DNA of 64,000 bases from a virus. Its lineage: Duplodnaviria > Caudoviricetes. The stretch's first letter is position 1. The number at the start of each line of letters is the position of its first letter. The stretch is taken from positions 32,001-96,000 of IMG/VR virus record IMGVR_UViG_3300011977_000007; one strand, written 5' to 3'. Below the pieces are notes generated by a model that was given only the letters and a program-made list of their open reading frames with translations, did not search any database and was not told where the DNA came from. Positions 3,033 through 31,800 of this stretch are shown in pieces. A program made the translations under genes and the position numbers.

Positions 3033-3278
3033 ATGCAATCCGGTAATACTTTTATAAGAGGAGTATTGGAATTAGTCACTGGGCAGCCAACCATAAAGGC
3101 TAAAGTTCATGGTGTACTAAAACCATTATCAATAGAATCATCAAATGTATCATTCTCTAATGATATTACTGTTAAGGATTCTACCAAAACTAATAAAATT
3201 ATATTATCTGGTAGTTATGGGACCGAAGATCCACCAACAGATGCTGTTGAAGGACAAATATATTTTAAAATAATTTAA
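3033..3278 (+). CDS. Small tail-associated protein
   Basis: C-terminal SYGTEDPP..AVEGQIYFKI motif typical of tail fibre adaptors. Confidence 0.55.
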   Translation: MQSGNTFIRGVLELVTGQPTIKAKVHGVLKPLSIESSNVSFSNDITVKDSTKTNKIILSGSYGTEDPPTDAVEGQIYFKII

Positions 3279-8182: not shown

Positions 8183-8258
8183 AATAAGCACCATGGGATA
8201 ATGCCCATGGTGCTACCTTTAACATTTTATTAAAATAATGAATAAAGGGGGAAAAGAA

Positions 8259-10781
8259 ATGGCTATTAAGACGGGTGATAATTTCTTATATAGAGGAAAG
8301 AAGCCTTTAGACGATAGAGATAGTTTTGATACGATATCGGATATGATTGCATACGATATTAATTCGCTAGATGAAGGACATATTTCATATTGTAAGGCAA
8401 AAGATAAATATTATAAGTTTAATTCATCTAATGAAGATGATCCTACTACTGGTAAATGGAGAGAATATAATGCCGGTGGTTCTACTATAGATATAATAGA
8501 TGATCTAAATACTCAAAGTGCAATTGCTCCATTATCTGCTAATCAAGGTTATATATTAAGCCAAATGTTTTTAAGCGATTTAAAGTTTAATAGTATTACT
8601 AGGGAAGTTGAACTTATTTCTAAGAATGGTACTAAAACAACTTATTCATTGAAAACCTTTATAGATGATGTTCATAAAACCTTAATGCAGTCTAAAGCTA
8701 TTTATTGCGATAAGTTACCTACATGTGCTCAGGATAGTGATGGTAATTATATAGTTACATATGTAAAAGGTGGTACCACGTTAACAACAAGTGCTGCTAA
8801 TACATGGTTTTATTATAAAGATAATAATAGGGAAGATGTACAAACAATATTCGTTGATGGTGAAGAGATAACGATCCAATCTGGTACTATTGGTGATGTT
8901 GTTGCTATTGATCCTGTATCTAAAAATTGGTTAATTAATGGAGTTGATACTGGGGAATCTTCTAAGGGAGATGCCGGAAAAGATGGTAAATCTATTAGAT
9001 CTATTACAAAAGATGATGAAAATAATATTATTGTTACTTTCAGTGATTCAACAGTACAAAATATTGGTAAATTACAGATTGATATTCAGGGAGATTTCTT
9101 AACTGCTAATGGATTTGGTAATCTTAGGTATTATAATAGTCATTTCCAATATTATGATAAAAATACATCTACTTGGATAGATACTTCTGTCACTCCAGAT
9201 AATGTATATATTATGAATATGACACCACAGGAAATGAAGAAAATTTTTTGTGTGTATGATACAGCTTTAAGTAAATATAAACTTAAATTTAAAGAACCTG
9301 ATGATACTATTATTGATGGTCAAGTTGCTTGCATTGTTGAAAAGGTTATTATTCGTAGGAAACTTGGCTCAGTACCTACAAGTGAAACTGATGGAGAATT
9401 AGTTCTTGAAATAAAACGTAAAGATTTTGGAAGTTATAAAAATGAATATTTTGTAGATACTACTCTCTCACCTTCTGATGGTGATATTTATTATTATAAA
9501 GCATTCCCTATGAGTACAACAGGATTTTATAATACTAATCCTGCTAATGAAACAGATGGCATCAAGTGTAAGAATTATAACTTATATGGATTTAAATTAG
9601 ACCAAAATGAATCTGATCCAAATAGTATGATTACATATTTATCAGATTGTGACAACAAATATTATGAATCTGCAAAAATGAATTATACTGCTGATAAATT
9701 TAATTATGGTGATTGGGCAGATGCATGGTTTATTAAAAATTTGAAGCCTTGTATGCTAAAATATGATGGTACAGTTGATTATGAGTTGAATCCAAATGAT
9801 TATACCAAGAAACTTGATGGCACTGCTTCTGATGTTGCCAATGCTTCTTATGGTGGTAATGCTATGGTTGGTATACCAAAAATATATTGGAAGATCGTAG
9901 ATAATGGTGATAATACAGCCAATATCTATATCTGCGATAAGAAACTTGATGATGATTTTCATTGTTGGTCACATATTGATAATAATGGTAATGAGATAGA
10001 TTATTGTTATATGCCTATTTATAACGGAAGTCTTGTTAGTAGTAAACTACGAAGTTTGTCAGGGAAAACACCAATGGAGAACAAAACTACAACTAATGAA
10101 ATCACTTATGCTAAAGCAAATAACACTGGTTCGGATGTTATTTGGTATACAGAATTGTTTAATGACAGGATGTTAATCAATCTTCTATTATTGCTTATTG
10201 GTAAATCAACTGATACGCAGACTGTATTCGGAACAGGTAATAATAATTCATATGTTTCTACTTCTAATACAGGTGTTAAGAATACAGGTACTATGAATAC
10301 AAAAGGATTATTCTGGGGAAATCAGGATAATGTTAGTGGTGTCAAAGTATTTGGTATAGAACATTGGTATGGAAATATATGGAGACGTATTGGCGGTTGG
10401 ATTAATGATAAAGGCACACAGAAAATCAAGATGACTTATGGACAGTCTGACGGTTCAACATCTGACGGATATAATGAAACAGGTAGTGGATATATTTCTA
10501 TTGATGGTGCTACTCCTAGTGGTACAAGAGGTGGATATATTAGTAAGATGCTAATTACTGATAATGGTTTAATACCTACTATTATCAGTGGAAGTGCTAC
10601 TACTTATTATTGTGATGGATTTTGGTTTAATAATTCGCAAGTTGATTATGCTATGGTGGGTGGCGAATCTAACGACGTTTCTCTTGCGGGTGCGTTGTAC
10701 TCGAATCTCGACGAGGCGGTTTCGTCTGCTGGATGGTACGTCTGTGCTTCCCTTTCTTGTAAACCACTTGCAACAACTTAA
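8259..10781 (+). CDS. Tail fibre/receptor-binding protein with C-terminal C-type lectin (Mtd-like) domain
   Basis: Shared N-module; collagen-like KGDAGKDGK; C-terminal FGIEHWYGNIW...VGG...GA...L...S...ASLSC is typical of CLec-fold DGR targets. Confidence 0.7.
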   Translation: MAIKTGDNFLYRGKKPLDDRDSFDTISDMIAYDINSLDEGHISYCKAKDKYYKFNSSNEDDPTTGKWREYNAGGSTIDIIDDLNTQSAIAPLSANQGYILSQMFLSDLKFNSITREVELISKNGTKTTYSLKTFIDDVHKTLMQSKAIYCDKLPTCAQDSDGNYIVTYVKGGTTLTTSAANTWFYYKDNNREDVQTIFVDGEEITIQSGTIGDVVAIDPVSKNWLINGVDTGESSKGDAGKDGKSIRSITKDDENNIIVTFSDSTVQNIGKLQIDIQGDFLTANGFGNLRYYNSHFQYYDKNTSTWIDTSVTPDNVYIMNMTPQEMKKIFCVYDTALSKYKLKFKEPDDTIIDGQVACIVEKVIIRRKLGSVPTSETDGELVLEIKRKDFGSYKNEYFVDTTLSPSDGDIYYYKAFPMSTTGFYNTNPANETDGIKCKNYNLYGFKLDQNESDPNSMITYLSDCDNKYYESAKMNYTADKFNYGDWADAWFIKNLKPCMLKYDGTVDYELNPNDYTKKLDGTASDVANASYGGNAMVGIPKIYWKIVDNGDNTANIYICDKKLDDDFHCWSHIDNNGNEIDYCYMPIYNGSLVSSKLRSLSGKTPMENKTTTNEITYAKANNTGSDVIWYTELFNDRMLINLLLLLIGKSTDTQTVFGTGNNNSYVSTSNTGVKNTGTMNTKGLFWGNQDNVSGVKVFGIEHWYGNIWRRIGGWINDKGTQKIKMTYGQSDGSTSDGYNETGSGYISIDGATPSGTRGGYISKMLITDNGLIPTIISGSATTYYCDGFWFNNSQVDYAMVGGESNDVSLAGALYSNLDEAVSSAGWYVCASLSCKPLATT

Positions 10782-13232: not shown

Positions 13233-15221
13233 ATGCCAATTCAGATAGGGGACAACTTTCAATATAGAGGAAAGAAACCTTTGGATAATAGAAATAGTTT
13301 TGATACGACTTCTGAAATGAAGTCGTATCTTGACTCCTTTATTGATGAAGGTCATATCTCATATTGTAAAGAAACAAATAAGCATTATAAATATAATTCG
13401 TCTAATGAAGATGATCCTGTTTTAGGAAAATGGAGAGAATTTAATTCTGGTTCTTCTTCTGGTTCTGGAGATTCTACTCCTGCTAACATTATTGAAGTCA
13501 CCGATTTAATTAATACACCAAAAATTGGTGCTCAGCAAACTGTAACTTCAACAGATTTGAAAGCTAATATTTCTGATTTGAAAGTAAATCAGTTGGTATA
13601 TGATACCAGTGGATATATTGCTAAGATTGATTCTATCGATTCCACTCAAGATCAAATAGTATTAAAGGTTATTCATTACAATCCAAATTCTTCAGCTATT
13701 ACAGTAATCCCAGAACCAAATGATGATTCTAAATTATATTTTAGATCCAGAGAAGATGGGCAAAGTGCTGGTAAATGGATTGAATTTACTTCGGTAGATG
13801 GTACTAATATAAACGTAAAATTAAACGAAAAAGATAGCTCAAACACTACAGATGCAGATTATATACCTAAGCACGGAGAATTAGTTTACGATACTAATAA
13901 AAATATAATTGTACTTGGCGATGGTAAAACTAAATTGATTAATTTAAGAGCATTCTATTCAGTGGCTGTAACTGCACAAGATATTTTAAAATCTTTAGGA
14001 TTTACACCTGAGAATATTTTAAATAAAGGGCAACCTAATGGGTATGCTGGATTAGACGCTAATGGAATAGTTCCAGAGGCAAACCTTCCAGCAAGTGTTA
14101 CAAGTTCTTATAGTAAAGCTGATATTGATAAGAAGGATTCAGATGTATTAAATAGTGCTACTACTTTAGTAAATACCGAGGCTTCTACAGCTAGAAGTAA
14201 TGAAAATAAGATAAAGACAGATTTATCTAATCATACAAGTAATTTAGTTATTCATGTTACTCAAGATGATAAAGATAATTGGAATAAAAAAGTAGATCCT
14301 TCTGCATTAACTAATTATGATACTCATATTGCCGACGCTACAATTCATGTTACTCAGGCAGATAAAGATAAATGGAATGGCATGAATAAGAGTTACTTTG
14401 TGCAAAATATTTCTGATTTACCAACTACTGATAATGATATTGGTAATATTGGATATGTGCAAACATCAGCTGCTGGTATTACCCCTATAGCATGTGCTAC
14501 TTATATTTGGGACGGTACTCAATGGTTACAGTTAGATCAAACTCAAGTATCATTACAGTTTACTTGGAGTAATATAAGTGGAAGACCTAATGCTACGGCA
14601 TTAAAGATTGATGAAGCCGTAAATAGCTCTCATAAGCATAATAATAAAGGCGTATTAGATAAGATTTCTCAATCCGCTAATGGTAATTTTGTATTTAATG
14701 ATGTTGAGATTGGTATTAAGGTTATCTTTGAAGATACTGAAAAAGATTTACCTGATGCTGGTGCTGAAGATACTTTATATGTAGTATATAGAGATTCTCG
14801 TGTAAGAAATTACCCATCTATATCTGTATATAAAGACAAAGCATATCAAGTACTTGGTAGAGGTGCTCAAGATATACCTCAACAAGTAGGAGATATGAAT
14901 ATATTACAGCATGAATATTTTTCTGCTGCTAAGGGTGCACAGGTAATAATTAATGTAAATTCAAATCAATATTTTGCATTTTTACCTGTAGAAATATTAA
15001 AGAAAACTGAAGGTTTAAAAGCTCAAGATAAAGTAATACTTACAACTAATGATAGTGATAAATTTGTATATGATAAAGATCTTATTGCTGTATTAAATAG
15101 CGGGATAATTATTTCTCTTCAATCTATCCCATTAAAACTCGATAGTTCATCTGAGGGAACACATATGCTGTATGAAGATGTAGACTTATCGAAATATAAA
15201 GATATAAATTATATTGGATAG
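13233..15221 (+). CDS. Tail fibre protein
   Basis: MPIQIGDNF module; GELVYDT...GDGKT, KGQPNGYAGLD and IHVTQ.DK..WN fibre motifs. Confidence 0.65.
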   Translation: MPIQIGDNFQYRGKKPLDNRNSFDTTSEMKSYLDSFIDEGHISYCKETNKHYKYNSSNEDDPVLGKWREFNSGSSSGSGDSTPANIIEVTDLINTPKIGAQQTVTSTDLKANISDLKVNQLVYDTSGYIAKIDSIDSTQDQIVLKVIHYNPNSSAITVIPEPNDDSKLYFRSREDGQSAGKWIEFTSVDGTNINVKLNEKDSSNTTDADYIPKHGELVYDTNKNIIVLGDGKTKLINLRAFYSVAVTAQDILKSLGFTPENILNKGQPNGYAGLDANGIVPEANLPASVTSSYSKADIDKKDSDVLNSATTLVNTEASTARSNENKIKTDLSNHTSNLVIHVTQDDKDNWNKKVDPSALTNYDTHIADATIHVTQADKDKWNGMNKSYFVQNISDLPTTDNDIGNIGYVQTSAAGITPIACATYIWDGTQWLQLDQTQVSLQFTWSNISGRPNATALKIDEAVNSSHKHNNKGVLDKISQSANGNFVFNDVEIGIKVIFEDTEKDLPDAGAEDTLYVVYRDSRVRNYPSISVYKDKAYQVLGRGAQDIPQQVGDMNILQHEYFSAAKGAQVIINVNSNQYFAFLPVEILKKTEGLKAQDKVILTTNDSDKFVYDKDLIAVLNSGIIISLQSIPLKLDSSSEGTHMLYEDVDLSKYKDINYIG

Positions 15222-15235
15222 GCGGTGAAATTAAT

Positions 15236-16921
15236 ATGGGAACAATTTTACAATTTAAATCATGCGCATATGGCGGTGAATATACTGGTTATAATACTAC
15301 CCCTACTAATATATATTATGGATCTATGTATACGCCTGATAAAATAGGCGCATATATTAAAGAATGCTATAAAAATGATCCTAATATGGTAAACGTAGAG
15401 GGTATTGGATATGGATGGCAAAAATATACCGTTCCATATACATCTAAACTTAAATTTAGTGTTAGAGGAGCTGCTGGAGGAACCACATCAAGTGGCGCTG
15501 CTTCAATAGATCCAGTTACTGGTAAGGTAACTGGTAGCCTTAATAGACCTGGTAGAGGAGCAAAAATTGAAGGTGCGTGTTTACTTAATAAGGGTTCAAT
15601 TATATATATCTTAGTTGGTTGTAGAGGTTGGTCATCTAATGGCACTGCTTGGGGTAGTGGTGGTGGAGGAGCATCTGTAGTATTATTAGATAATCCTTCT
15701 GGTGCTTATACATTTACGCCCGTTAATAGAAAAGTTGATGTATTATTTGTTGCTGGCGGTGGTGCTGGTGCATATGTATGCTCGAGAATAGATTCGAGTA
15801 GATATGGAAACGATGCCGATATAAAGAATGGAACCAGTACAGGGGCTGGAAGTTCTAATAAAGCAAGTGGTGGTGCTGGATTAACTGCTGGAACTGGAGG
15901 GGATGAAGGTAATGCATATGCTATATTATCTGGAAATCCAAGTACTACCTCTAGTCCATATTATGGAGGATGGGGCGGTGGAGGAGTTTCATGGAATGGT
16001 GGTGGAGGAGGCGGTGGCTATAGCGGCGGAAATGCTACCGACTCTGGATTAAGTAATGGTGGAACATCATATATTAACCCCACTCTATGTACTGAAATAT
16101 TTAGAGGATATGCTACACTTGCACAAGATTCAAATAGAAATCTTGAGAATCCTTGGACTGCATATGGATTTGTAGAAATTGAGTTAGGTAGAAGCCCGGA
16201 GAAATATATTCTTGCGAAAGACTCTGATGGATATAAATATTTTAATGGTATTACGTTGCTCGATAATACCACTAATGATTCCGGTAATGATACTTGGGAA
16301 TTATTACCAGACCAGTCTTCTGTTCCAACACAAGATATTTATGAAACCTATGGTAAATATATGATTACTAGCGCTAATGGATTACAGAACAAAGTAAGAT
16401 TTCTTGTAAGTTCTAATGAGGAAGATGATACTATTGATATTTCTGGTAAAGTAAATAAAACTATAGTAGAAACTAAAGATAATAATACATCTGGTATTGA
16501 TACTATTAAGTCTATTACTTTTACCGGAAATACTGCTGGAGCTACAATTAAATTTGCCGTTTCTAAAGATAGCGGCGCTTCATGGCAAACTTATAGTAAT
16601 GGTGTTTGGAAAGATATAGATGTTACTGATAAAGATAAGTTCTTAAATGATGGATGTTATCTTGATCAAATAACTACTATTCCTGTAAATGATTGGAAGG
16701 ATTATCTTTCTAAGACATTAAGGTTTAAGTTCATTATTGATCAGAATGATACTACAGGAAATTTAATTAACGAAATTAAATTTAACGTAGACTTACTTGG
16801 ATCATGGATGCATTTTAAAGAATCGCAAGCTCAGTATGAGTATATTTCTGATACTGAATTAAAGATCACTTTCTTAGAAGCTGGAGATTATAAAGTAAAT
16901 TATTTGGATAAAATATCATAA
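15236..16921 (+). CDS. Glycine-rich virion/receptor-binding protein
   Basis: GAAGG...GRGA...VAGGGAG...GGGGGGYSGG glycine-rich domain. Confidence 0.6.
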   Translation: MGTILQFKSCAYGGEYTGYNTTPTNIYYGSMYTPDKIGAYIKECYKNDPNMVNVEGIGYGWQKYTVPYTSKLKFSVRGAAGGTTSSGAASIDPVTGKVTGSLNRPGRGAKIEGACLLNKGSIIYILVGCRGWSSNGTAWGSGGGGASVVLLDNPSGAYTFTPVNRKVDVLFVAGGGAGAYVCSRIDSSRYGNDADIKNGTSTGAGSSNKASGGAGLTAGTGGDEGNAYAILSGNPSTTSSPYYGGWGGGGVSWNGGGGGGGYSGGNATDSGLSNGGTSYINPTLCTEIFRGYATLAQDSNRNLENPWTAYGFVEIELGRSPEKYILAKDSDGYKYFNGITLLDNTTNDSGNDTWELLPDQSSVPTQDIYETYGKYMITSANGLQNKVRFLVSSNEEDDTIDISGKVNKTIVETKDNNTSGIDTIKSITFTGNTAGATIKFAVSKDSGASWQTYSNGVWKDIDVTDKDKFLNDGCYLDQITTIPVNDWKDYLSKTLRFKFIIDQNDTTGNLINEIKFNVDLLGSWMHFKESQAQYEYISDTELKITFLEAGDYKVNYLDKIS

Positions 16922-16969: not shown

Positions 16970-17168
16970 TGATATTAGCAACATTTCATTAATAGACTGA
17001 TTAGTCTGCTATCACTAAGAAGCATAACTACAAAGAAAAATATATTGAAATTTTTTATTTTAATTATTTATACATTATTTTATTTTTCTCGTAGTATAAA
17101 TATTGCATTCTGCGTATGATTAAATTCATACACTATATTTTTTGCTTCTTAAATATATAGAAAGGAAA

Positions 17169-17723
17169 ATGAATATTATGCAAGTAATAAAAACACCCAC
17201 TGGATTGATTGCTGTTGATGAATTAGCACAATCTATGACTCAAACAGAGTATAATAATTTACCTGCAGATAAACAGAAGGTTGGTACTTATTATATTATA
17301 AGTGGCGATGGTAAACATATAGCTCTTATTATAAAAGATGGTGTTCCACTAGATTCACTTCCTGCTAATAATGCTGCATTTACACCACCTAGTGGTATGA
17401 GTTCAACTACAGTTCAACAAGCTATAACAGAACTTTATAATAATATGAAAAATACACATAAGTCTATTACTGCAGTGGCTCCATCTACTAATTGGACTGG
17501 CAGCGCTGCTCCTTATACTAATAATATTGCTGTTGCTGGAGTAACAGCTAATAATATAGTTGAAGTTGGGTTAAGTAATAATGCGAATGACGATCAAGTT
17601 AAAGCATGTATGAAAGCAAGTATTGCTAAAATAGAACAACAAAACGGAAGATTAATATTATATGCTTATGGTACTAAACCTACGGTGGATATACCATTAT
17701 CATGCGTTATAGTAAATAATTAA
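17169..17723 (+). CDS. Tail fibre adaptor-like protein
   Basis: C-terminal ~75 aa nearly identical to the C-terminus of the 24539 product. Confidence 0.6.
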   Translation: MNIMQVIKTPTGLIAVDELAQSMTQTEYNNLPADKQKVGTYYIISGDGKHIALIIKDGVPLDSLPANNAAFTPPSGMSSTTVQQAITELYNNMKNTHKSITAVAPSTNWTGSAAPYTNNIAVAGVTANNIVEVGLSNNANDDQVKACMKASIAKIEQQNGRLILYAYGTKPTVDIPLSCVIVNN

Positions 17724-17739
17724 TAAGGAGGAAAATATT

Positions 17740-18907
17740 ATGCCAATTATTAATAGACTTCCAATCGGGGGGGGGGGCATCCTCTGAAGTAGGCATTAGT
17801 GACGGTAAAGGAATTGTAAATTTAAATATTTTTACACAAATGGATGAACCTACAAAGAAAGATGGAATTTGGATTAAAACTAATCATAAATATCAGAGAA
17901 TCATAATTAATAAACCTTATGTAGCATCAAATACTGAAACCGAAATATATTATGTACTAAATCCCGTACCATTTGACATTAGTTTTGCTCAGAAATATTC
18001 ATGTCTGCTACATGGAAATATGTATGTTGTAGGTTATATATATAATTCTAATAATGATTCGTGGACTTTTACTAATGAGCCATATGGTGTGTGGTATCAT
18101 AATGATATATATTATGCAACTTATTTGTCTAATGATGATTGGTACATATGTAGATATAATAATGGCAATCCTGTAAAAATATGCAAATTCTTGGAGAGTA
18201 GTGATAGTTTCTATGCAGTTTATAATGATGAAATATATATTAGTAATTTTGAGAATAGCACATATTATTCAATGTTTGTAAAATTTAATGGTAGTGCATA
18301 TACAGAACTTAATCCTAGCGATAGACCATCTGGTATTAGGCAAATAATATCTTATGGCGGATATTTAAATATATTTACTTTAAATGAGCATTATATATAT
18401 AATGCGGCTAATAATACTATAACGTATAAAACCTATCTCCCACGTACATATACAAATGGCTGTTGCGCAAAAGTTACGGTTCACAATAACGAGTTACATT
18501 ATTGTGCATATGATTCACATTATAAATTTAATGATTCTTCCAGTTCGTGGGTACAAGTATCTAAATGCGATGGCTTACCTAGCGATATAGATTATTTGTA
18601 TAGTGCAATTTCGTATAATGGAATTATTTATTTATTTACAGGTAAATATGATAAAAAGTTTATGTGCTTAAAATCTCCATCAGTAGTATATGATCCTAAT
18701 ACTTTAATTTTGCACAAGAAGAATACATATACTGGTACATATCTAACAGCAATTGCTGATACTTCAGCGATTATCGATGATGGAAATAATAATAATCGCT
18801 TTGTTTCCAGTTTCGATGATTGCTATTATTTTGCAGATTCTGCATTTGATTGGACTGCACCGATGTATTATGGTAATGGATCGCAATGGATAAAATTTAA
18901 AAATTAA
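17740..18907 (+). CDS. Poly-G-interrupted putative receptor-binding protein 1 (out of frame as sequenced)
   Basis: TAAGGAGG RBS, ATG 17740 MPIINRLPI, G11 at 17767-17777, then ATC CTC TGA; G10 or G13 fuses the start to ORF 17840..18907. Confidence 0.8.
17767..17777 (+). repeat. G11 homopolymer
   Basis: Directly visible, context CTTCCAATC-G11-CATC. Confidence 0.95.
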
Positions 18908-18952
18908 TATAGAGGATTTATTATCCTCTATAAATTAAAGGAGGGTAATATC

Positions 18953-20153
18953 ATGCCAACAATTAATAGACTCCCAATCGGGGGGGGGGGCATCATCTAG
19001 TGGTGCTGCCGGATTAAATATCTTTACTCAGATGAATGAACCTGAGAAGAAAGATGGTATTTGGATACAAACCAATAATCGATATGAAAAAATAATTACT
19101 GATGCTAGGATTATGGTTAATACAGATAATGGTGTTATAAGTAACAAAAGATATTTGCACTATTCTGGCACTGGTGCCCCCTCTTATTATAATTACAGTA
19201 TTGATTGTGAATATTATAATGGATCGGTATATGGATTGGTTGACTGCCAAAATGGTAGCGAAACCATATGGGTATTGCTTGTACGAATAGATAATAATAT
19301 AATTACCACTATAAATGAAAATAATGTGAAAATTAAATATATAAATAAATACATGGATAAAATATATCTTACATCCGGAACTGATAAATCTGATGGATAC
19401 TCCGTCTCTTCATTATATGTATTAAATAGTCAAATGAATCAAGAAAATTTTTTATCAATACCTATTAGTGATATATGTGGTGTTATTGAGTATAATAATA
19501 CATTACTATTTATTGGTGCTTACAATGAGTATTGCCAATTTGATGGTAATTCATTCACAACTAAGTATACGACTACTGATAATATACATGGTAATTGCGT
19601 TGTATATAACGGATATATATACACATCATCGAATGTTGGTTTATATAGATGGGATACTAATAATATTACTTTAGTATTATCGTCATTTAGAATGAATGGT
19701 CAAATGTGTGTATATAATAATAGTATTTATTATACATATGGTCCTGATTTATATAAATATAATGCAATTGATAATTCTTGTACATTAATATCCGGTAATG
19801 TACTTGATCGAGAAGGTTCAATATTATTATGCACCGATGGATATAAATTATATATGCAGACATTTAATGATAGTTGTGGTCCAGATGATAGTCTTATAAA
19901 AAATATAACTGCTAGAGTTGCCGATTATTCTTTAGCTAAACAAAATTTTGATAATAATACCGTAATATTACAGCGTGGAGAAACCGGAAATGGGAAATAT
20001 CAAACTGCATTTGCTGATTTAACTAAAAGTGTTTCTGGCGTTAATCGTTTTATTTCTGGATTCGATGACGCTTGGTTTTATAGTAGTGGAGGATTTGAAA
20101 ATTGTCCTATGTATTATGGTAATGGATTTCAATGGATAAGATTTAAAAATTAA
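18953..20153 (+). CDS. Poly-G-interrupted putative receptor-binding protein 2 (out of frame as sequenced)
   Basis: AAGGAGG RBS, ATG 18953 MPTINRLPI, G11 at 18980-18990, then ATC ATC TAG; G10 fuses to ORF 19032..20153. Confidence 0.8.
18980..18990 (+). repeat. G11 homopolymer
   Basis: Directly visible, context CTCCCAATC-G11-CATC. Confidence 0.95.
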
Positions 20154-20177
20154 AGAAGGCATTTTGCCTTCTTTTTT
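20152..20177 (+). terminator. Intrinsic terminator after RBP gene 2
   Basis: AAAGAAGGCA-TTT-TGCCTTCTTTTTT. Confidence 0.7.
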
Positions 20178-20202
20178 ATTATTAATTAAAGGAGGCGATA
20201 AA

Positions 20203-21513
20203 ATGCCTGTATTAAATAGAATAAATAGGATGCTTAGTTTTCCTATGAATAGTAGTAGTGGGGTAAGCGGGAAGTATTTTCTCGGTAGTGGACATATTTA
20301 TAATTTTAATGACAATGGTACAATTACTACTATTAATGCCCCATCCAATATATCTTTTTCATCAGCAACAAAAAATGGTAGTTATATTTGCGCTTATCGT
20401 TATAGTGACAGCAACAGTTACTACATTTATCAATATAATGGTGATTCTATAACACAGACCCAAGATATTAGTGCTTATTTAAATAACTATAATTATAGTT
20501 CTAAAATAAATGATGGCAATACATATACAATTAATAGTATTAGTAGCCCTACATTTGCTAATACTGATCAATATATTGTATTTGCAGTATCATTAAAATA
20601 TGCTTCTACTCCTTACTTACATAAAGTATATATATGTGTATTGGAATTAAATAATGGCAAATATGAAATGAGTAAAGTTATAGATTCGAATATGGGTGAT
20701 CAAAATACTGTATCTACAGGCGTATCGCTACGCGGAGTATCCGACGATTTATCATATTTTTTCGTTAGTATCGATACCCCATCCGGTAATACATACGATT
20801 CTTCTTTATATATGATATATGCTAATTCGCCTAATGCATATACAGCATGGAAAATGGATACTGAAAGAGGAACACATATTACAGTTGGATATCCTGGCGG
20901 TTCTTCTAACTGGGATGAAATTCCTAGCTTTTACCTTGCGGATAATAAATATTTTATTACCGATGTAACATCAAGTGATTTTATATACGTATATAAAATA
21001 AATGATCATAGCTCTATTACTAGAACATTTACAAGTGATTATTGCCCGCTACATACGTCAATTTCCATTAAAAATATTGAGTACATTAATAATGATTATA
21101 TAGCGCATTATACGTATAGTTATAGTAGTGACAGTTACGATCAATATTATAATTGTATATATAGGTTACAGGATAGTATTTATAATTATCGTTATTCGTC
21201 GGAACGAGAAAATGTTAATATTGGATTTTATGATTATTATGTTATACTTATAGATGATTATAGTAGAAAGACATATTATAAGTCTTCAGACGGTAAATCG
21301 TTATACGTTAAAAATAATAAATATTATCTTAATGGTAGCGAAAATAATGTAGTGACCACTGGAGAATCGGAAGTTTCAACTATGATATATCATACTAATA
21401 GTGATAACTATAATGATAGAATTTCCATAGGAAGCTATTATGGATATGATGATAATAACGGAAATTATAAATTCTTTAATATGGCAGCAAGCGTATACGG
21501 CGGCCCTTATTAA
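20203..21513 (+). CDS. Tyr/Asn/Ser-rich putative receptor-binding protein without a G tract
   Basis: AAGGAGG RBS, ATG 20203 MPVLNR, uninterrupted frame. Confidence 0.7.
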   Translation: MPVLNRINRMLSFPMNSSSGVSGKYFLGSGHIYNFNDNGTITTINAPSNISFSSATKNGSYICAYRYSDSNSYYIYQYNGDSITQTQDISAYLNNYNYSSKINDGNTYTINSISSPTFANTDQYIVFAVSLKYASTPYLHKVYICVLELNNGKYEMSKVIDSNMGDQNTVSTGVSLRGVSDDLSYFFVSIDTPSGNTYDSSLYMIYANSPNAYTAWKMDTERGTHITVGYPGGSSNWDEIPSFYLADNKYFITDVTSSDFIYVYKINDHSSITRTFTSDYCPLHTSISIKNIEYINNDYIAHYTYSYSSDSYDQYYNCIYRLQDSIYNYRYSSERENVNIGFYDYYVILIDDYSRKTYYKSSDGKSLYVKNNKYYLNGSENNVVTTGESEVSTMIYHTNSDNYNDRISIGSYYGYDDNNGNYKFFNMAASVYGGPY

Positions 21514-21546
21514 ACATATTTAATTTAATTTTTAGGAGGATTAATA

Positions 21547-22510
21547 ATGTCAATTTTAAATAAACTTCCAATTGGGGGGGGGGGCATCTGATAATACTTC
21601 CTCTGGAGAATTATTTACTAAAGATGCAATAATATCAAATGCATACTATTATTTTGATCAAATGGTACATTGTGCAACTTCAGATACGATTGTATTAGGT
21701 TATCATTTTTATTCCGATAATAAATATTGGTTTAGAAGATATACATATAAAAATAAAGTATTTACTATGTTACCTTCATTAGACCAGGTATGGAGCTCTG
21801 TAGCACGATATATCTTAGTATCAACAGATACTAGGGTATATCTTAATATAGCATCTGGATATATATATGAATACGATAATAATGATTTAGAAAATTGGAT
21901 TAATAGATATAATGATAATAATATATTTAATAGTGGGAATGGATGTGCATGTATGTTTAATAATAATATGTATGTGGTTGTTAATGATTATAATTACGTT
22001 AATGGGAATTACGAATATAATACTAATATATATTCATATGATTTTACAACCTATACGCTGTTATATTCATCTAGCTTTATTTATAATTATGCAGTACATC
22101 AGTGTATATATTATAACGGAGATATATATTTAAGATTTGGAAATCATTCTGGGGTAAAAGTATTTAATATATTAAATCATAATAATATTACAGATTTAGC
22201 TACTCCAATGAAGTATATTGGATCGATATGCGTATATAATCAATGCATATACTTTATTAGCGGAGCACAGGTAGAAGCGCAGAGGCTTTTTTATAAATAT
22301 GATGGAACTCAGTTTACATTAATATGTGATTTAACAAATCATATGAAATGTAATTATAGTTCCGATAGTATTATAATGGAAGTGATAAATAATAAATTAT
22401 ATCTTTTAGGAGATTGTATAGATAAAAGTGATAACCAAAATAGCGTATATATCTATAACTCTACGGATGGCGATTCATTTACTAAAGTATCTTGGTTATG
22501 TAGTAAGTAA
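21547..22510 (+). CDS. Poly-G-interrupted putative receptor-binding protein 3 (out of frame as sequenced)
   Basis: AGGAGG RBS, ATG 21547 MSILNKLPI, G11 at 21574-21584, then ATC TGA; G10 restores the frame of ORF 21572..22510. Confidence 0.8.
21574..21584 (+). repeat. G11 homopolymer
   Basis: Directly visible, context CTTCCAATT-G11-CATC. Confidence 0.95.
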
Positions 22511-22587
22511 TATTTTATAATTTTTAAAACAATTTAATAAATAAATATTTTTATTTACAATCAAATGGTGAAAGGAGACTATTCAAT

Positions 22588-22878
22588 ATGGCTAAGATTG
22601 ATAGTGGAAAAACTTTAGACAACAAGAAAATTGAGTATGAGATTCTTGACGATGGATATGATATCTATTTAGGTGGAAATCTTTGGATTACTCAGCACGC
22701 TCAGTATGGAAAACCGATTGATCCTGAAGGAACTTACGAAGAGAATTGTAAGAAACAGATTGAACAGATCACAACGGTTCCGGAACCAACTGTAACTCCA
22801 CAGGATAAGTTACGTGCAGATGTAGATTATCTTGCACTTATCACCGGTGTTGACTTAAATGAAAATGTATTAGCTTAA
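22588..22878 (+). CDS. XkdW-like tail fibre accessory protein
   Basis: LRADVDYLALITGVDL C-terminus; late promoter at 22528. Confidence 0.55.
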   Translation: MAKIDSGKTLDNKKIEYEILDDGYDIYLGGNLWITQHAQYGKPIDPEGTYEENCKKQIEQITTVPEPTVTPQDKLRADVDYLALITGVDLNENVLA

Positions 22879-22892
22879 GGAGGAAATATATT

Positions 22893-23111
22893 ATGGCATT
22901 CACAGCAAGAGATTTATCAAAGAAATATTACCCAAGACTTTGGCCAATTTGTCGTTTGGTTGCTTTGGTAAAAGTAGGAAAATTATCTGAAGCTGATTAT
23001 AAGGAGATTACTGGATTTACATATCCGGCTACATCAGCACCAACAGAGGAGTCAAAGGATACTAAGAATGATGCTTCTGAGACTACAGAAGATTCTAATA
23101 AGCAGAAATAA
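22893..23111 (+). CDS. XkdX-like protein
   Basis: YY..LW.....LVK.GKLSEADYKEITG pattern. Confidence 0.7.
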   Translation: MAFTARDLSKKYYPRLWPICRLVALVKVGKLSEADYKEITGFTYPATSAPTEESKDTKNDASETTEDSNKQK

Positions 23112-23205
23112 TAATTAAGAATAAATATACTGGTGCAATATAATTTGCACCAGTATACTATTTATTTTTTATATAAAATAGGATGATTTTTAAGGAGGAA
23201 AGACT

Positions 23206-24397
23206 ATGCCAGTAATAAATCGACTTCCAATCGGGGGGGGGGGGGGCATCTGAATTAGGAATTTCCAACGGTAAAGGAACTGTTGGATTGAACGTATTCA
23301 CTCAGATGGATGAACCTCAAAAGAAAGACGGAATATGGATAAAAACAAATCATACCTATCAAAATGTGATGGTAAATCAACAGTTTGCTAATTATCAAGA
23401 TGGTGTTTGGAGTGCAATTTGTCCATTGAATAATATAGGAAGGACTAAATTAGTTACAAATCAAGGTGCATTATATTTATTTAGCGATAATTATAAGTTA
23501 TATCGCCTAAATGGATCAGCATTAGAATATATTTGTGATTATAATAGTAGAACTAATGTAATGGCATCTTATAATAATTCATTATATATTATTACTGCTT
23601 CTGTAAGTACCGGATATGTATTTAAATATAATGGTATTAACTGGGAAAGAGTATCTGAATTTTATGGTACAACATATTTTGATAATTGTGTTACATTATA
23701 TAACGATCAATTATGCCTTTTTTATGGTAATAGTAATCAGACAATAAGCAACGATATATATCTATTTAATGGATCTACATTTACGCAATTATGTGATGCG
23801 ACTTTTTACGGTAGTGATAATGATAAAATACTAATAAAGAGCATTATTACTTATAATGGTAAACTATATATGTTTGGTAGTGTATCAAGATTTCCAGCAG
23901 ATGGCTTATTTTACTTTGTTTTAAATGCAGGTAATAATTGGACAAAATCAACAGTGCCAGTGACTGCAAATTCATTGTGCGTATGTACTTGCGTTTATAA
24001 TAATGAATTATATTTGTTCTATGAGGACAGAGACACTACTTATAATGATATATACTATTGTAAATATAATGGTGCATCATGGACGCTTATAGGGAAAGTT
24101 GGATATTGTGGTCAAGTTTCTTTAAATCAATATATGTACGGTGCTAGATCTTCATTATATAGATATACTTTACCGCAAAAAGTATATAATCCAAATACTG
24201 TTATTATAAATAAGGGTGATTCTCAAAATGGTGTTTATTTAACCAATATGTTTGATACGTCTTACATGGTTGGTAATAATAGCAATAGATTTGTATCTGG
24301 ATTCGATGATTGTTTTTATTTTGCAGATTCTGCATTTGATTGGGGGGCTCCAATGTATTACGGCAATGGTTCTCAATGGATTAAGTTCAAGAATTAA
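23206..24397 (+). CDS. Poly-G-interrupted putative receptor-binding protein 4 (out of frame as sequenced)
   Basis: TAAGGAGG RBS, ATG 23206 MPVINRLPI, G14 at 23233-23246, then ATC TGA; G13 fuses to ORF 23288..24397. Confidence 0.8.
23233..23246 (+). repeat. G14 homopolymer
   Basis: Directly visible, context CTTCCAATC-G14-CATC. Confidence 0.95.
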
Positions 24398-24538: not shown

Positions 24539-26707
24539 TTGTTTAGAAAAATTACTTATACTGATAAAGAAGATATACTTGGCCTTGTTTCTATTGATAA
24601 TAAAAATAAAGTAACAGCTCAAGATATGAATGATATCAAGAATGCTATTAATGATAATACTACAGAATTAGATAAAATAATGGTGCATTTAGCAGGAGAT
24701 ACCATGACTGGTGCTTTAAATTTTAAAGCTAATACTTGGAATAAATATGGTTCTAATGTTGCTGTTGGAGCTATTAATACTGCCGGTACCCTAGCAGTAA
24801 AGGGATTGGATGGAAAAACTACTATTAGATTAGTTCCTAATGGAGCTACTGATAATAATGGTGTTACATGGGCAGCTAATTCTGCTACAGATTCTACTAT
24901 TAGTGGCACTCTTAATGGTAGTTTTAAAGGCCCATTAGAAGGAAATGCTGCTACAACCACGAAGCTTCAAACTGCAAGAACCATTAATGATACTTCATTC
25001 AATGGTACTGCTAATATCACTACTGCTAAATGGGGAACTGCTAGAGATATTACATTAGGATTAACAAAGAAATCTGTTAATGGTTCTACTAATATGGCAT
25101 GGACTTTAGCAGAAATGGGCGCTTTACCAGCTGCCGGTGGTAGCATGACTGGCGATATTAAATTTTCAAATGTTCAAACTGGAATGCGCGGTATTACGGG
25201 AACAGTTGGAGATAATGATAACTGGAGAGTAGTTGGTGTATCTACTGCATCGGATGCTGGATATTTAGAAATTGCTACGGCTGATGGGGGAGACGAGCCA
25301 ATATATGTAAGACAATATTCTTTTAAAGATAGTAATTCATTTGGAACTGTTGCTAGAACTGCTACAATATTAGATGCTTCTGGTAATACTACTCTGCCCG
25401 GATTATTAACTGTTAATGGTATTCATTCATCTAAAGCTTGTACTTTTGATGATAATTTAACTGTTAAAAAGAATATTACAGGTAATGGTACCCTGTCAAT
25501 AGACGGAGTTACAACTCTTAAGAATAATGCAAATATTAACGGTACTTTATCTGTTGATGGAGCTACAACACTTAAAAATACATTAAGTGTTACTGGAGCG
25601 CTTACTGTACATGGTGGTATAACCGGATCTTTAACCGGTAACGCTTCTACTGCAACTAAGTTAGCTACTGCTAGAACAATTTCTTTAACAGGATCTGTAA
25701 CTGGTAGTGGTACATTTGATGGTAGTGGTAATTTATCAATAGCCACAACAACGAATCATACACATGCATATTTACCGACTGCCGGTGGTAGCATGACTGG
25801 AAATATTAATTTTAATGGTAGAGGTAATAATTATATAGGTGCTGGTCCAAGAGATGGTGCTGGCGGTGTAGGTGAAGAATTAAATAACCTTGTAATTTCA
25901 GCATGGTATGGTGTATCTTTTACAACATTATGCGATGGAAAATATAAAAATAAAAACGCTGTAAGTATTAATACTAGAACTGGCCATGTGTATGCTAATA
26001 CTTATCATGGTGCTTTAAGTGGAAATGCTTCTACAGCTACAAAAGCAACGCAAGATTCAGCAGGACAACAAATTAATACAACTTATATTAAAGGATTATC
26101 TGTATCTGGTAGGACTATTACTTATACTAAGGGTAATGGCACTACAGGAACAATTACAACTCAAGATACCACATACCCTTTTAAAGCTATGACTATTGAT
26201 GGTAGTTATACTACAAAATATCGTACACAAACAAAAGGTAATACTGCTAGTGGCGATTATATAACCACCATAAGAAACGATACAGCTAATGTAAGTAACT
26301 CCCCCCAATATGGTTCCGGTTTAGCTTGGGGTAGGGGTGATACACATGGATATATGTATATGAGTTATAGCTCACCTGAAGCTTATGTTGGTGGTGGCAA
26401 TGCTGATAAACTTAACTGGGTTAAAAAAATAGGATTTGCTCCGATAACCACTAATGTTATTGCATATGCTGGTTGGTGGGGAGGTGGTGCTGCTCCATAC
26501 ACATGCACTATTAATATAGCAAATGTTACAGCAAGTAATGTTGTTGAAGTAGGTTTAGCTTCTAATGCAAATGATGATCAGGTTAAAGCATGCATGAAAG
26601 CAAGTATTGCTAAAATAACCCAAGCAAATGGTTCTATTACATTATATGCTTATGGGACAAAACCAACGGTAGATATACCACTTTCTATAGTAATAATGGA
26701 AAATTAA
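24539..26707 (+). CDS. Long tail fibre protein
   Basis: Repeated GNASTATKL.TARTI fibre motifs; N-terminus shared with 2628, C-terminus shared with 17169. Confidence 0.8.
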   Translation: MFRKITYTDKEDILGLVSIDNKNKVTAQDMNDIKNAINDNTTELDKIMVHLAGDTMTGALNFKANTWNKYGSNVAVGAINTAGTLAVKGLDGKTTIRLVPNGATDNNGVTWAANSATDSTISGTLNGSFKGPLEGNAATTTKLQTARTINDTSFNGTANITTAKWGTARDITLGLTKKSVNGSTNMAWTLAEMGALPAAGGSMTGDIKFSNVQTGMRGITGTVGDNDNWRVVGVSTASDAGYLEIATADGGDEPIYVRQYSFKDSNSFGTVARTATILDASGNTTLPGLLTVNGIHSSKACTFDDNLTVKKNITGNGTLSIDGVTTLKNNANINGTLSVDGATTLKNTLSVTGALTVHGGITGSLTGNASTATKLATARTISLTGSVTGSGTFDGSGNLSIATTTNHTHAYLPTAGGSMTGNINFNGRGNNYIGAGPRDGAGGVGEELNNLVISAWYGVSFTTLCDGKYKNKNAVSINTRTGHVYANTYHGALSGNASTATKATQDSAGQQINTTYIKGLSVSGRTITYTKGNGTTGTITTQDTTYPFKAMTIDGSYTTKYRTQTKGNTASGDYITTIRNDTANVSNSPQYGSGLAWGRGDTHGYMYMSYSSPEAYVGGGNADKLNWVKKIGFAPITTNVIAYAGWWGGGAAPYTCTINIANVTASNVVEVGLASNANDDQVKACMKASIAKITQANGSITLYAYGTKPTVDIPLSIVIMEN

Positions 26708-28892: not shown

Positions 28893-31800
28893 ATGGGAAT
28901 TAATGCTCCAAAGCACGTAATACGAAAGCCTAAGCACATTACAAATCCGAAAGACATAGAATATATATTGTCCTTAACAGAGGATGAGGCTGCAGCTAAA
29001 AATACGATAATGGATTTATTTGCCGATTTTGGAGACGGCCCAAGATTTAATACTTATGATATTATAGAAATTCCTAAGGGATCTTATGGTAAAACTAAGA
29101 AGAATAAAAATCAATTTACAACTACAGTTGGATTATATGTATTTAATAAAGGCTGCATAGAAGATATGTCTGATGTACTGGGATATATTAATGAGCCTAT
29201 TACTGCTGATAAGTATGATGAAATAAATGAATTAGTATCATATGCTAAATTGGAAGATAAGATCACTGTACAGCAGTTGAAAGATTTTATAATACAATCT
29301 CAGATTTATATGTCTTGTACTTCAGCATTATCACCATCTCATACAATGGTTCTTCTTTTAATCTCAGATAAAATTGAGGCTAGAAAGAAACAATTATTAA
29401 AAGATAAGTATGGCGAGGCTATAAAGAAGAAAGATATTAAAGCAATGGATGCTCTTGATAAAGAACTTCTTGATTATGCAAAGGAATTATTAAAAGATGA
29501 TCCATCTGTTGATATGTTTAATTCTGGTGCTCGTTCATCATGGGGTAAAATTACTCAGCATATATAGTAATATGTGTGTTTCAATGGGGTTAATTGCAGG
29601 TAATACCTAAAGGCCTTACGCCAAAACGGAATTTGAAAAAATAAACGGTATGGTACGAAAGTAGAAAAAACGTAAGGATGCAATAAGCTGAAATAAAATT
29701 CTATTATAAATTATAATAGATGCTAAGTTGTAATAACAAGGGTTGTTCATGCAGCGAAATACCTAAGTCTATATAGATATGGTAAACGTTCAACGACTAG
29801 CCGATGACGTCGGCGGCTTTGCCTTAATGTAAAACCACAAGTTAATGGTGGAAGAAAAATCCCAGCCCTATAAATATAGGGATGACAAATAGTCTCTGCT
29901 ACTACTTAATCGTAGTGACAACTTGAAATAATATAAGTTGTGTATATAGAGTTGCGTCTATATATAAAGATATAAAAATTATATAATATAAAAATTAAAT
30001 ATAGGTAGATAATTACAATTCTCAAAACACTTCATTAAATCTGTAATGAAAGGTGGTGAGGATCGTGAGTAAAATAAATAACAATAAGCAATATTATAAA
30101 GGTCATAAATATAAAATATACCCAACTGAGGAACAAAAACAAAAGTTGGATAAATTTATAAATCTTTATAGGTACGTTTATAATTGGGCTCTTGCTAAAG
30201 AACAAGAGATATATGAATCTTATAAAAATGGTGAAAGTGAAAAATCATTTTATACTTTCTTTGATTTGTCAAAAATATTTGTACAATATAGAAATTCGCC
30301 TGAAAATAAATGGTTATTAGAATTACCCAACGGTACTGCATGTAATGCGATAAATGAATTGGTTACTGCATATACAAGGTTTTTTAATAATATTAGTGGG
30401 TATCCTAAATTTAAATCTAAGAAAAATTCTAAAAAATCATTTACAACTAGAAATGATAGATTTTATATAGATAAAAATACTGTAAAAATAGAAGGATTAG
30501 ATCTAAATGATAGAATTCAATTAGGGTTTGATTCTGAATATAATAAAGATTCTGTTCATCATAATACAGTTATATCTAAGGATACTATAGGTGATTATTA
30601 TGTGTCATTTTGTACTATTGAAGAAAAAATAGAAATTGATAATTCTGATGGTGGGGTAATAGGTATTGATTTGGGAGTTAGAAATACATTAACAACATCT
30701 GTACCTATTGAAGGTGAATATTTTCATCATCAACCATTTAATAAGATTAGTAAATTAAAACGTAATATATCTAAATTACAAGTTAAAGTATCTCACGATC
30801 AATTACGTAGACTTAATGAAGCAAAACGTACGAAAACCAAGTACGAAGACATACCTAAAAGTAAACGAGAAATTAAGAGAGAAAAAATAATAAATAAGAA
30901 ATACATTAAGATTCATAATATTAAAAATACATATTATGATACTATTATTAAACGTATTATGGATACTAAGCCTAAGGCTGTTGTAATGGAAACTTTTGAA
31001 TATAATAAAATCATACATTCACAAAAATATATGACTAAATATATGGTTGATACTTCATTTTATGATATTACTCAAAAAACAAAGTATCAATGTAATAAAA
31101 GAAATATTCCATTTATTCAGGCACCAGTGCAATATGCATCATCCCAAATATGTAGTAATTGTGGAAATAGGATTAAAATAGGTAATAAAAAGATTTATAG
31201 ATGCCCTATATGTGGTAATACGTTAGATAGAGATCTTAATGCTGCTTATAATCTCGAAGATTTTTATTATGACTATACTGGTACTAATAGATTAGTTGCT
31301 GTAAGTATAGCGTAATTCGTTTACACATTATTTAGGTTAAATAATGAATTTTAATGTACCGAGTTTTACTGTTCTCGGGATGTTAAGATCATTGAGAATT
31401 GTAAGTATATATCATTTATAAGCCCAACCAGCTTAACGTGTGGTATTCACACGGTTGATATATGAATTATGATTTGTTGATATGATAAGTAAATCATAAT
31501 TATATATTTACCTTTATAGGTTTACATATTATATGATTTTAAATACAGTAACAATTTTAAAAACATGTATGTTTCTCGTGGTACTGTTAAATTGACCGAT
31601 GGATCATTTGATATGGTTACTTCATCATATATATCTGGCCTATCAAAAGAAGATCTTGTTAAAGCAAATGATGCTGCTGTTGGTGGTCCTTATAGCCGTG
31701 CTGTAAAAACTAAAGAGGGTGGATATAATGAAAAGAAAATTCTCTATGGATTACAGCATGTAAAAGTATTACCTAAAGGATCTGATTGTGGAACTAATAG

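Follow-up and report, generated by a model that had tools for sequence, protein, structure and literature searches.

The window analysed here is a stretch of 64,000 nucleotides (positions 32,001 to 96,000 of the IMG/VR record IMGVR_UViG_3300011977_000007, a virus of the Caudoviricetes). Between positions 17740 and 24397 it carries an array of five genes within a tail module, four of which are interrupted close to their start by a long run of G. We think it likely that this is a phase-variable array of alternative tail-tip genes switched by slipped-strand mispairing, like the poly-G receptor-binding genes of Fletchervirus phages. The observations behind this reading are the anatomy of the genes, their fused product, the polymorphism of the tracts between assemblies and samples, and selection on the homopolymer at the DNA level.

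Four genes interrupted by poly-G tracts

The four interrupted genes (genes 1, 2, 4 and 5 of the array) are built in the same way. Each starts at an ATG (17740, 18953, 21547 and 23206) preceded by an AGGAGG-type ribosome-binding site (RBS), and each encodes a 9-codon leader with the consensus M(P/S)xxN(R/K)LPI, so that the G tract begins 27 nt after the ATG in every case. All lie on the plus strand. Gene 1 comprises the RBS AAGGAGG (17725–17731) and the leader MPIINRLPI (together 17725–17766), a G11 tract with one G too many (17767–17777) and a body of 376 codons whose frame opens at the last G (17777–18907). This body is 41% identical to that of gene 5 and carries LNIFTQMDEPxKKDGIWIKTN as adaptor motif, together with a conserved segment of ~60 amino acids (aa) at the C-terminus. 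Gene 2 has the leader MPTINRLPI (18953–18979), an out-of-frame G11 (18980–18990) and a body of 387 codons (18990–20153). Gene 4 has the leader MSILNKLPI (21547–21573), an out-of-frame G11 (21574–21584) and a body of 308 codons (21584–22510), which consists of a Kelch propeller and lacks both the adaptor and the C-terminal segment that the others share. Gene 5 has the leader MPVINRLPI (23206–23232), an out-of-frame G14 (23233–23246) and a body of 383 codons with adaptor, six-bladed Kelch propeller and conserved C-terminus (23246–24397).

As written, the four genes encode products of only 14–15 aa, with a stop 1–2 codons past the tract, while the reading frame beginning with the last G continues without a stop to the end of the body. 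Deleting one G fuses leader to body as LPI-GGG-AS. In the consensus of the window every switched gene is off. An earlier note, made from the letters of the window alone, had described these starts, tracts and stops and the effect of removing one G, and we confirmed each of them at the coordinates above; the size that it gave for the fused bodies, 310–370 aa, has to be corrected to ~320–399 aa for the fused products. It had also seen no other G run of such length in the window, which proved true of the whole 110,263-bp record: no other run of G or C reaches 8, the longest runs of A and T are 8, and 19 overlapping G8 matches were found against 0.19 expected from dinucleotide-preserving shuffles. 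We rejected the idea that a different genetic code produces the early stops, given that they mix TGA and TAG and are followed by further stops in frame; long table 11 open reading frames (ORFs) elsewhere in the window also speak against it. When the five regions upstream of the array genes were aligned, the RBS alone was conserved and no shared promoter appeared, a sigma-70 scan staying at chance level.

The fused protein as the gene product

Gene callers begin the bodies internally, at Met or TTG codons, and miss the true starts, as the earlier note had claimed for the ORF track of the window. A protein database search gave 53 homologues of body 5, in 50 of which the adaptor region is retained. 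Half of these (25 of 50) begin at a Met inside the adaptor (MNEP, MDEP, MTEP), at the site where the window has its first downstream Met. Twelve or more of the others start with the leader and continue straight on, for example MPTINRLPIGGGASSSGAAGLNIFTQMNEP (P0041) and MPTINKLPIGGGGASSEVGISDGKG (P0013), and a start of the form MPxINxLPIGGG(G)AS followed by the body is found in P0012, P0013, P0018, P0021, P0022, P0031 and P0041. In the contigs of leader-fused homologues that were looked up, the tract was G10, G5AG7 or GGT+G7, all in frame.

The pattern of substitutions agrees with a fused product. For leader codons 2–9, the ratio of nonsynonymous to synonymous polymorphism (pN/pS) was 0.33 over 14 distinct leaders, with changes such as AGA/CGA, CTT/CTC and ATC/ATT. 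For the LNIFTQ segment of ~20 codons between the tract and the first Met, it was 0.08 over 11 distinct versions. The first downstream Met itself is not conserved, homologues having Q, P, S or L there (FTQQ, FTQP, FTQS, FTQL), and no RBS lies upstream of it. Leader and body appear to evolve as one coding sequence, and on these comparisons we regard the fused protein as the real product. A start at the downstream Met, the alternative that the earlier note had set against its own reading, is unlikely on the same grounds (the low pN/pS before an unconserved Met without RBS), and so is a switch in which the leader forms a separate cistron.

Tract length differs between assemblies and relatives

Tract lengths were compared at the level of consensus sequences and contigs; the 21 listed runs were available in the form of Logan contigs, four of the runs were inspected, and for four of the contigs compared the reading was done by eye. 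The inspected Logan runs gave contig breaks and differences of ±1–2 G only. Four near-identical assemblies could be set side by side, namely the window, L074 and L075 (both from run SRR948125) and L073 (linked by sample name only). Genes 1 and 4 had G11 in every one of these assemblies that spans the tract. Gene 2 had G11 in three and G12 in the Logan assembly of SRR948125 (L075). At gene 5 the window has G14 and both L073 and L074 have G10, which is in frame and gives a protein of 395 aa (P0059). Logan contigs of the best-matching run end and begin inside the tract of gene 4, and none spans that of gene 5.

More distant relatives extend the range of lengths. The orthologue of gene 1 in L078/L079 has G9 with the next C missing and is likewise out of frame, and a relative sharing the flank of gene 2 (L076/L077) has G10, in frame. 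The closest relative found (G001) and a 267-kb contig from the human gut differ at one gene (G8 against G9), and between samples we saw G8/G9, G9/G11 and G10/G11 differences. Relatives of 262–267 kb carry 6–7 switched genes with G8–G11, some of them in frame; one of 262 kb (L070) has seven, with G11, G11, G10, G10, G9, G10 and G11, two on and five off. In a sister contig of L070 from another sample, the gene-call coordinates are offset at two tracts, by +2 nt at the one and +1 nt at the other, which would correspond to G11 in place of G9 at one gene and, at a second gene, to an off allele instead of the on allele of L070. The state changes at the 17319 gene only; a flip at the 15267 gene of the sister was considered and rejected, as its 403-aa call is a TTG-started ORF in the body frame that implies G11, still off.

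Contigs tend to break at these tracts. G001 ends inside one (265684–265692), the human-gut 267-kb contig starts at one and a pig-gut scaffold is interrupted by an N gap at such a tract; ends, starts or gaps of these kinds were located at the start of L090, at L071:13057–13066 and at the end of L075. Both tract states occur naturally: off alleles encode 13–21 aa, and the in-frame G10, G5AG7 and GGT+G7 alleles encode the fused protein. In related genomes, where the earlier note had proposed to look, lengths differ both among near-identical assemblies and among samples.

Beside the array of G001, we noticed two further G runs. Just upstream of its first switched fibre gene (L069:10240–10610) lies a small gene absent from the window, with the start MAVLNNLMTGSTDYNVVLQACKDALSQS, a G11 tract and then ~90 codons in another frame, apparently another type of gene interrupted by poly-G, placed at the array's edge. 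On the minus strand ~2 kb downstream of the array (L068:10785–10793) there is a G9, after which a frame of 115 codons is open.

Selection on the homopolymer and on the bodies

Only 7.1% of the Gly codons in the long ORFs of the window are GGG, and just one other in-frame GGGGGG occurs in them. The Gly linker of relatives is written differently, as GGT GGT GGG in L095 and as GGC GGC GGT GGA in L102, and L071 has GGT, GGC and GGA codons among other residues. Because GGG is rare and relatives spell the linker with other Gly codons, the homopolymer is kept for its properties as DNA and not for the peptide. That G10 and 13-nt versions are both in frame implies that the Gly linker tolerates steps of three.

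The bodies are under constraint as well. At 35–50% identity, and in DNA of 29% G+C, they stay open for 300–430 codons in every lineage, with a ratio of nonsynonymous to synonymous substitution rates (dN/dS) of 0.4–0.6, and in every lineage the tract is the sole lesion. The open bodies and this dN/dS rule out simple decay.

A proposed switch and the alternatives to it

In the model that we favour, the unit of switching would be a cassette with its own RBS, the 9-residue leader and a linker of three to four Gly that consists of one uninterrupted G run, followed in genes 1, 2 and 5 by the adaptor LNIFTQxxEPxKKDGIWIxTN, a variable six-bladed Kelch beta-propeller and the conserved C-terminus. Slipped-strand mispairing, presumably during replication of the phage DNA, would alter the length of the run. 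Lengths of G10 or G13 (3n+1) would yield the full protein, and any other length a stop after 14–19 residues, so that each paralogue would be toggled heritably, reversibly and independently of the others. The phage population would then be a mixture of tail-tip repertoires, hedging its bets over variants of the host surface, and we infer that switching changes the host range.

The earlier note had already proposed a contingency locus. Length polymorphism, natural G10 alleles with LPIGGGAS, the rarity of GGG and contig breaks at the tracts speak for it at the consensus level; the distribution of states, which it leaves unexplained, does not. Several points weigh against the model here. About 17 lineage-by-gene observations need one G fewer, ~4 need one more and ~7 are in frame, in a hand count shaped by how the contigs were found and made over observations that are not phylogenetically independent; chi-square against equal thirds is ~9.9 with 2 degrees of freedom (worked out by hand, with the same non-independence and biased sampling). 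G11 is by far the commonest length, G11+CATC being found at ~15 loci and G10+CATC at 4, and all four switched genes of the window as well as 5 of the 5 evaluable ones in G001 are off. Simple random switching does not explain this excess of one G too many, which needs selection for the off state, a toggle between G10 and G11 biased towards insertion, or expression from the off state. Moreover, the evidence for heterogeneity within a population comes from disagreement between assemblers and from contig breaks, and homopolymer sequencing error could explain both.

Expression from the off state would be possible if the shift were made during gene expression instead of, or on top of, switching in the DNA. 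G11 and G14 would then be the resting genotype, read through by slippage of RNA polymerase or by a +1 ribosomal shift on GGG, and several alternative tips would be present in virions at low dose. This would account for the bodies being kept open while the consensus is off for every switched gene of the window and for 5 of 5 in G001, and for the ~17 of ~28 observations that need precisely a +1 ribosomal shift or a 1-nt deletion in the transcript. Rare codons favour +1 slippage, and GGG is rare in the window. A programmed site would however be expected to be fixed, whereas G8, G9, G10, G11, G12 and G14 are found at orthologous or identical genes; in-frame G10 and homopolymer-free alleles exist, and some off alleles require the opposite shift. 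With lengths from G8 to G14 and alleles already in frame, the tracts do not behave as a slippery site of fixed length at which a shift is the sole route to the full protein. Among the listed runs, there was no RNA run containing the locus. We give such recoding a small chance, and a slimmer one to a specific form of it, in which one G too many is the designed resting state and full-length tips are made at a low, tunable rate through slippage of the phage's RNA polymerase or a +1 shift. If that were true, the virion would be a mosaic of receptor-binding proteins and G10 alleles in the DNA a heritable "locked high" setting, in effect a two-tier switch, phenotypic and genetic.

Error in sequencing or assembly is another way to obtain one G too many, the true tracts being fixed at G10, G10, G10 and G13. 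Short reads cope poorly with G runs of 11 or more, the lengths do not agree between assemblies tied to one run (G14 against G10, G11 against G12) and contigs break at the tracts. Set against this, four assemblies produced by different software give G11 at genes 1, 2 and 4, the same length turns up in seven or more further samples or studies (assembled with MEGAHIT, SPAdes or the IMG pipeline), and the same contigs also have G10, G9 and G8. L070 carries G9, G10 and G11 side by side, so that there is no uniform bias of +1, and random error would put about one third of the tracts in frame without favouring one wrong frame. The recurrence of G11 across assemblers and studies, together with G8–G10 on the same contigs, makes a pure artefact very unlikely. 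A leader-peptide switch by translational coupling, as in pil1 of Streptococcus gallolyticus, would make the leader a separate ORF whose stop, set by the tract, controls initiation of the body. The leaders are indeed short ORFs with a strong RBS that end 1–2 codons past the tract, and gene callers do start the bodies at an internal Met or TTG. We nevertheless hold this to be highly improbable, considering the natural in-frame alleles that fuse leader and body into one protein, the strong purifying selection in the body frame on the ~20 codons before the Met (pN/pS 0.08), and a downstream Met that is unconserved and without RBS, as would not be expected of a separate cistron. Lastly, the tracts could be frozen frameshifts in redundant, decaying fibre genes, in keeping with the off consensus of the four genes here and of most genes in relatives. 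Bodies kept open in AT-rich DNA at the identities and dN/dS given above, a lesion always confined to the tract and the occurrence of on alleles leave this scarcely any credit.

Kelch propellers with constant ends

A structure prediction was run for the natural on allele of gene 5 (AlphaFold2, alignment of 30 sequences). The model has a mean predicted local distance difference test score (pLDDT) of 75, above 85 over most of residues 70–320, and consists of a disordered leader and linker (residues 1–26), a short beta adaptor (27–60), a confident six-bladed propeller (~65–320) and a C-terminus that is conserved but poorly modelled. In Foldseek it matched the Kelch domains of Keap1, KLHL and NS1-BP (TMt 0.58–0.66, probability 1.0), as well as virion or Kelch-like proteins of the jumbo phages PhiPA3, Noxifer, EL and G. 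Pfam matches to Kelch families stayed below the gathering cutoffs (gene 4, Kelch_2, E-value 3e-4; gene 5, Kelch_KLHDC2 family, E-value 8e-8), so that Kelch membership holds at the level of the fold only. At that level, the switched bodies are predicted to be six-bladed Kelch propellers, which gives a concrete form to the propeller-like body suggested in the earlier note.

In genes 1, 2 and 5, the common adaptor and the C-terminal ~60 residues flank a variable middle, and gene 4 has the propeller only. The bodies of the three (17777–18907, 18990–20153 and 23246–24397) have near-identical adaptor segments and near-identical C-terminal segments (the latter NRFVSGFDD...YYGNGSQWIKFKN) around divergent propellers, a pattern that suggests exchange of cassettes by recombination between the constant ends. 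A putative role in receptor binding is inferred from the position in a tail-fibre module, the fold shared with virion proteins of jumbo phages and the arrangement of constant ends around a variable middle.

The same combination of adaptor motif, Kelch-type body and C-terminal YxGNGxxW is found in prophage-like regions of Anaeromassilibacillus senegalensis, Clostridium minihomine and Clostridia metagenome-assembled genomes (MAGs), and in the prophage-like regions read there was no G homopolymer in the N-terminal stretch before the adaptor. From these likenesses, the host of the phage is probably among gut Clostridia, and the A. senegalensis (L102) and C. minihomine (L097) regions point to hosts of the Oscillospiraceae type. 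In one uncultured Clostridia MAG (L098:2971–4126), the adaptor MQGNVLGQIGGSIGLNIFTQPNEPAKKDGIWIKTDKK and a 345-aa Kelch body lie in different frames, split around an A6 run near 3074–3080; the split may reflect a frameshift error, or else a switch based on poly-A.

Gene 3, a tractless member of the array

Gene 3 (20203–21513, plus strand, 436 aa) has no tract and is in frame, as the earlier note had reported for its fifth gene; the paralogy implied there was not detectable. Compared with the other four, it reached an hhalign probability of 6%, its likeness to them ending after the first six residues (MPVLNR); the value for gene 4 against the switched family was 97.7%. Its N-terminus, MPVLNRINRMLSFP, is invariant even among homologues of 37% identity, and 7 of the 7 known members of its family are without a tract. 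In a DNA alignment, window positions 20203–20244 hold non-repetitive sequence where the switched genes have the tract. The N-terminus may be a docking peptide related to the leader of the switched genes.

An assignment of role from structure was tried and set aside: the AlphaFold2 model (pLDDT 58) is of low confidence, matches only generic beta-propellers and establishes no role. The earlier note's view of gene 3 as the default receptor-binding protein is thus unsupported and amounts to conjecture, the gene belonging to a separate tractless family with a low-confidence propeller model.

Relation to known switches

Fletchervirus phages carry up to four receptor-binding proteins, two of which are phase-variable via poly-G, as described in PMC8713573 (citing Sorensen et al. 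2021, Cell Rep 35:109214) and in bioRxiv 10.1101/2025.10.21.683753. The two systems are alike in that lytic phages hold several alternative receptor-binding proteins (putative in our case) and in that G runs in coding sequence (~7–11) frameshift expression on and off to give phenotypically mixed populations. Unlike Fletchervirus, the array described here belongs to an uncultured gut jumbo phage of ~260–300 kb, probably infecting Clostridia, uses Kelch propellers and is known from sequence alone. It also repeats a uniform cassette, a 9-codon leader plus a tract doubling as Gly linker, in 4–7 copies per array, most of which are off in the consensus.

Contingency tracts of T2, T4 and other coliphages are short (at least 6), spread across many gene classes and reportedly under-represented in tail fibres (Gomez, Barrick & Waters, bioRxiv 10.1101/2025.10.21.683753). 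They share with the present array homopolymer slippage, reversible frameshifts and bet-hedging in phage populations. In contrast, the tracts described here are long (G8–G14), lie in the tail-tip array save for the two extra runs of G001, and are maintained against codon bias.

Among bacteria, contingency loci with a 5'-proximal poly-G are well known from Campylobacter jejuni, Neisseria and Haemophilus. The viral locus resembles them in the position of the tract near the 5' end of the ORF, which keeps the off products tiny, in the on/off step of 1 nt and in having several independently switching paralogues; it differs in being viral. Other phages diversify their host range by inversion of the G segment (Mu) or C segment (P1), or through Mtd, the target of a diversity-generating retroelement in Bordetella phage BPP-1. 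The proposed outcome is similar, virions with alternative receptor-binding tips from one genome, but the proposed mechanism is homopolymer slippage and not site-specific inversion or mutagenic retrohoming.

The Kelch fibres of the Clostridia prophage-like regions (L102, and L097 of Clostridium minihomine) are close in architecture, with the adaptor NIFCQPxEPxKKDGIWI, a propeller body and the C-terminal YxGNGxxW. L102 further shares the upstream partner gene, and at its N-terminus a short peptide leads into a Gly-rich linker. Unlike in the window genes, the linker of L102 and L097 is made of mixed Gly codons without a homopolymer, and the fibre gene stands in a single copy and not in an array, so that these genes are not switched.

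To our knowledge, poly-G-switched receptor-binding proteins have been demonstrated experimentally in Campylobacter phages only. The principle is thus known; what is new is the phage group, the likely host, the protein family, a uniform cassette repeated 4–7 times and the predominance of the off state. These features suggest a bet-hedging device that was built independently as a standard cassette, with a docking leader, a G run that serves as Gly linker and a swappable Kelch propeller. Its carriers are giant uncultured phages from pig, bovine and human gut samples. If the switch is confirmed, a consensus genome would not reveal the host range of such phages, gene callers would systematically mis-start such genes, and metagenomic contig breaks in tail modules might serve as a signature of switching. 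The family offers a concrete case in which phage-side phase variation in the gut could be measured.

Genome and tail module

The record that holds the window is an IMG/VR contig of 110,263 bp with a CheckV completeness of 35%, which implies a jumbo phage. Its closest relative found, G001 (IMGVR_UViG_3300045988_173509), is 265,692 bp long and 98% complete, and ENA assemblies provided more relatives of 262 kb and 267 kb. The source is an uncultured gut jumbo phage of about 260–300 kb, and the sample labels and run records for the locus and its relatives name pig, bovine and human gut, feces and manure. Searches by megablast and tblastn against 50,697 phage records returned no cultured relative of the array or of P0059, and two conserved proteins of the phage gave only uncultured or distant matches in the search for cultured relatives. 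An IMG/VR scan with protein patterns had no match and scans with DNA patterns found G001 only, a scan of JGI metagenomes for leader plus tract gave 10 matches, all unrelated high-GC sequences or chance, and none of the five array proteins had a match in PHROGs.

The array is embedded in a tail module, with PHROG tail or tail-fibre matches at 8238–10781, 13233–15221 and 24539–26707. The module includes an ALK/LTK-type glycine-rich protein of 561 aa (15236–16921; PF12810, E-value 1.9e-10) that is kept in all relatives directly upstream of the array. Adjoining the array on the upstream side is a 193-aa gene (17142–17723, plus strand), a conserved partner of Kelch fibre genes with an orthologue in G001. 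A 160-aa homologue directly precedes the Kelch fibre gene in the prophage-like region of Anaeromassilibacillus senegalensis (L102). Downstream of the array, a CHAP endolysin is encoded.

Within the array, a palindromic, terminator-like hairpin follows gene 1 (18908–18932, strand not assigned), a hairpin with a T run resembling an intrinsic terminator follows gene 2 (20152–20174, plus strand) and another terminator-like hairpin lies 5' of gene 5 (23126–23157, plus strand). Two small conserved genes of 96 and 72 aa (22588–23111, plus strand) break up the array. The pair is also found inside the arrays of relatives, and a small gene at its position in L071/L094 has a weak match to Phage_XkdX. Elsewhere in the window, we noted a TnpB/IS605-type ORF (30053–31315), whose orthologue in L073 matches Pfam HTH_OrfB_IS605 and Cas12f1-like_TNB. 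The largest ORF of the window encodes 2059 aa (41877–48056).

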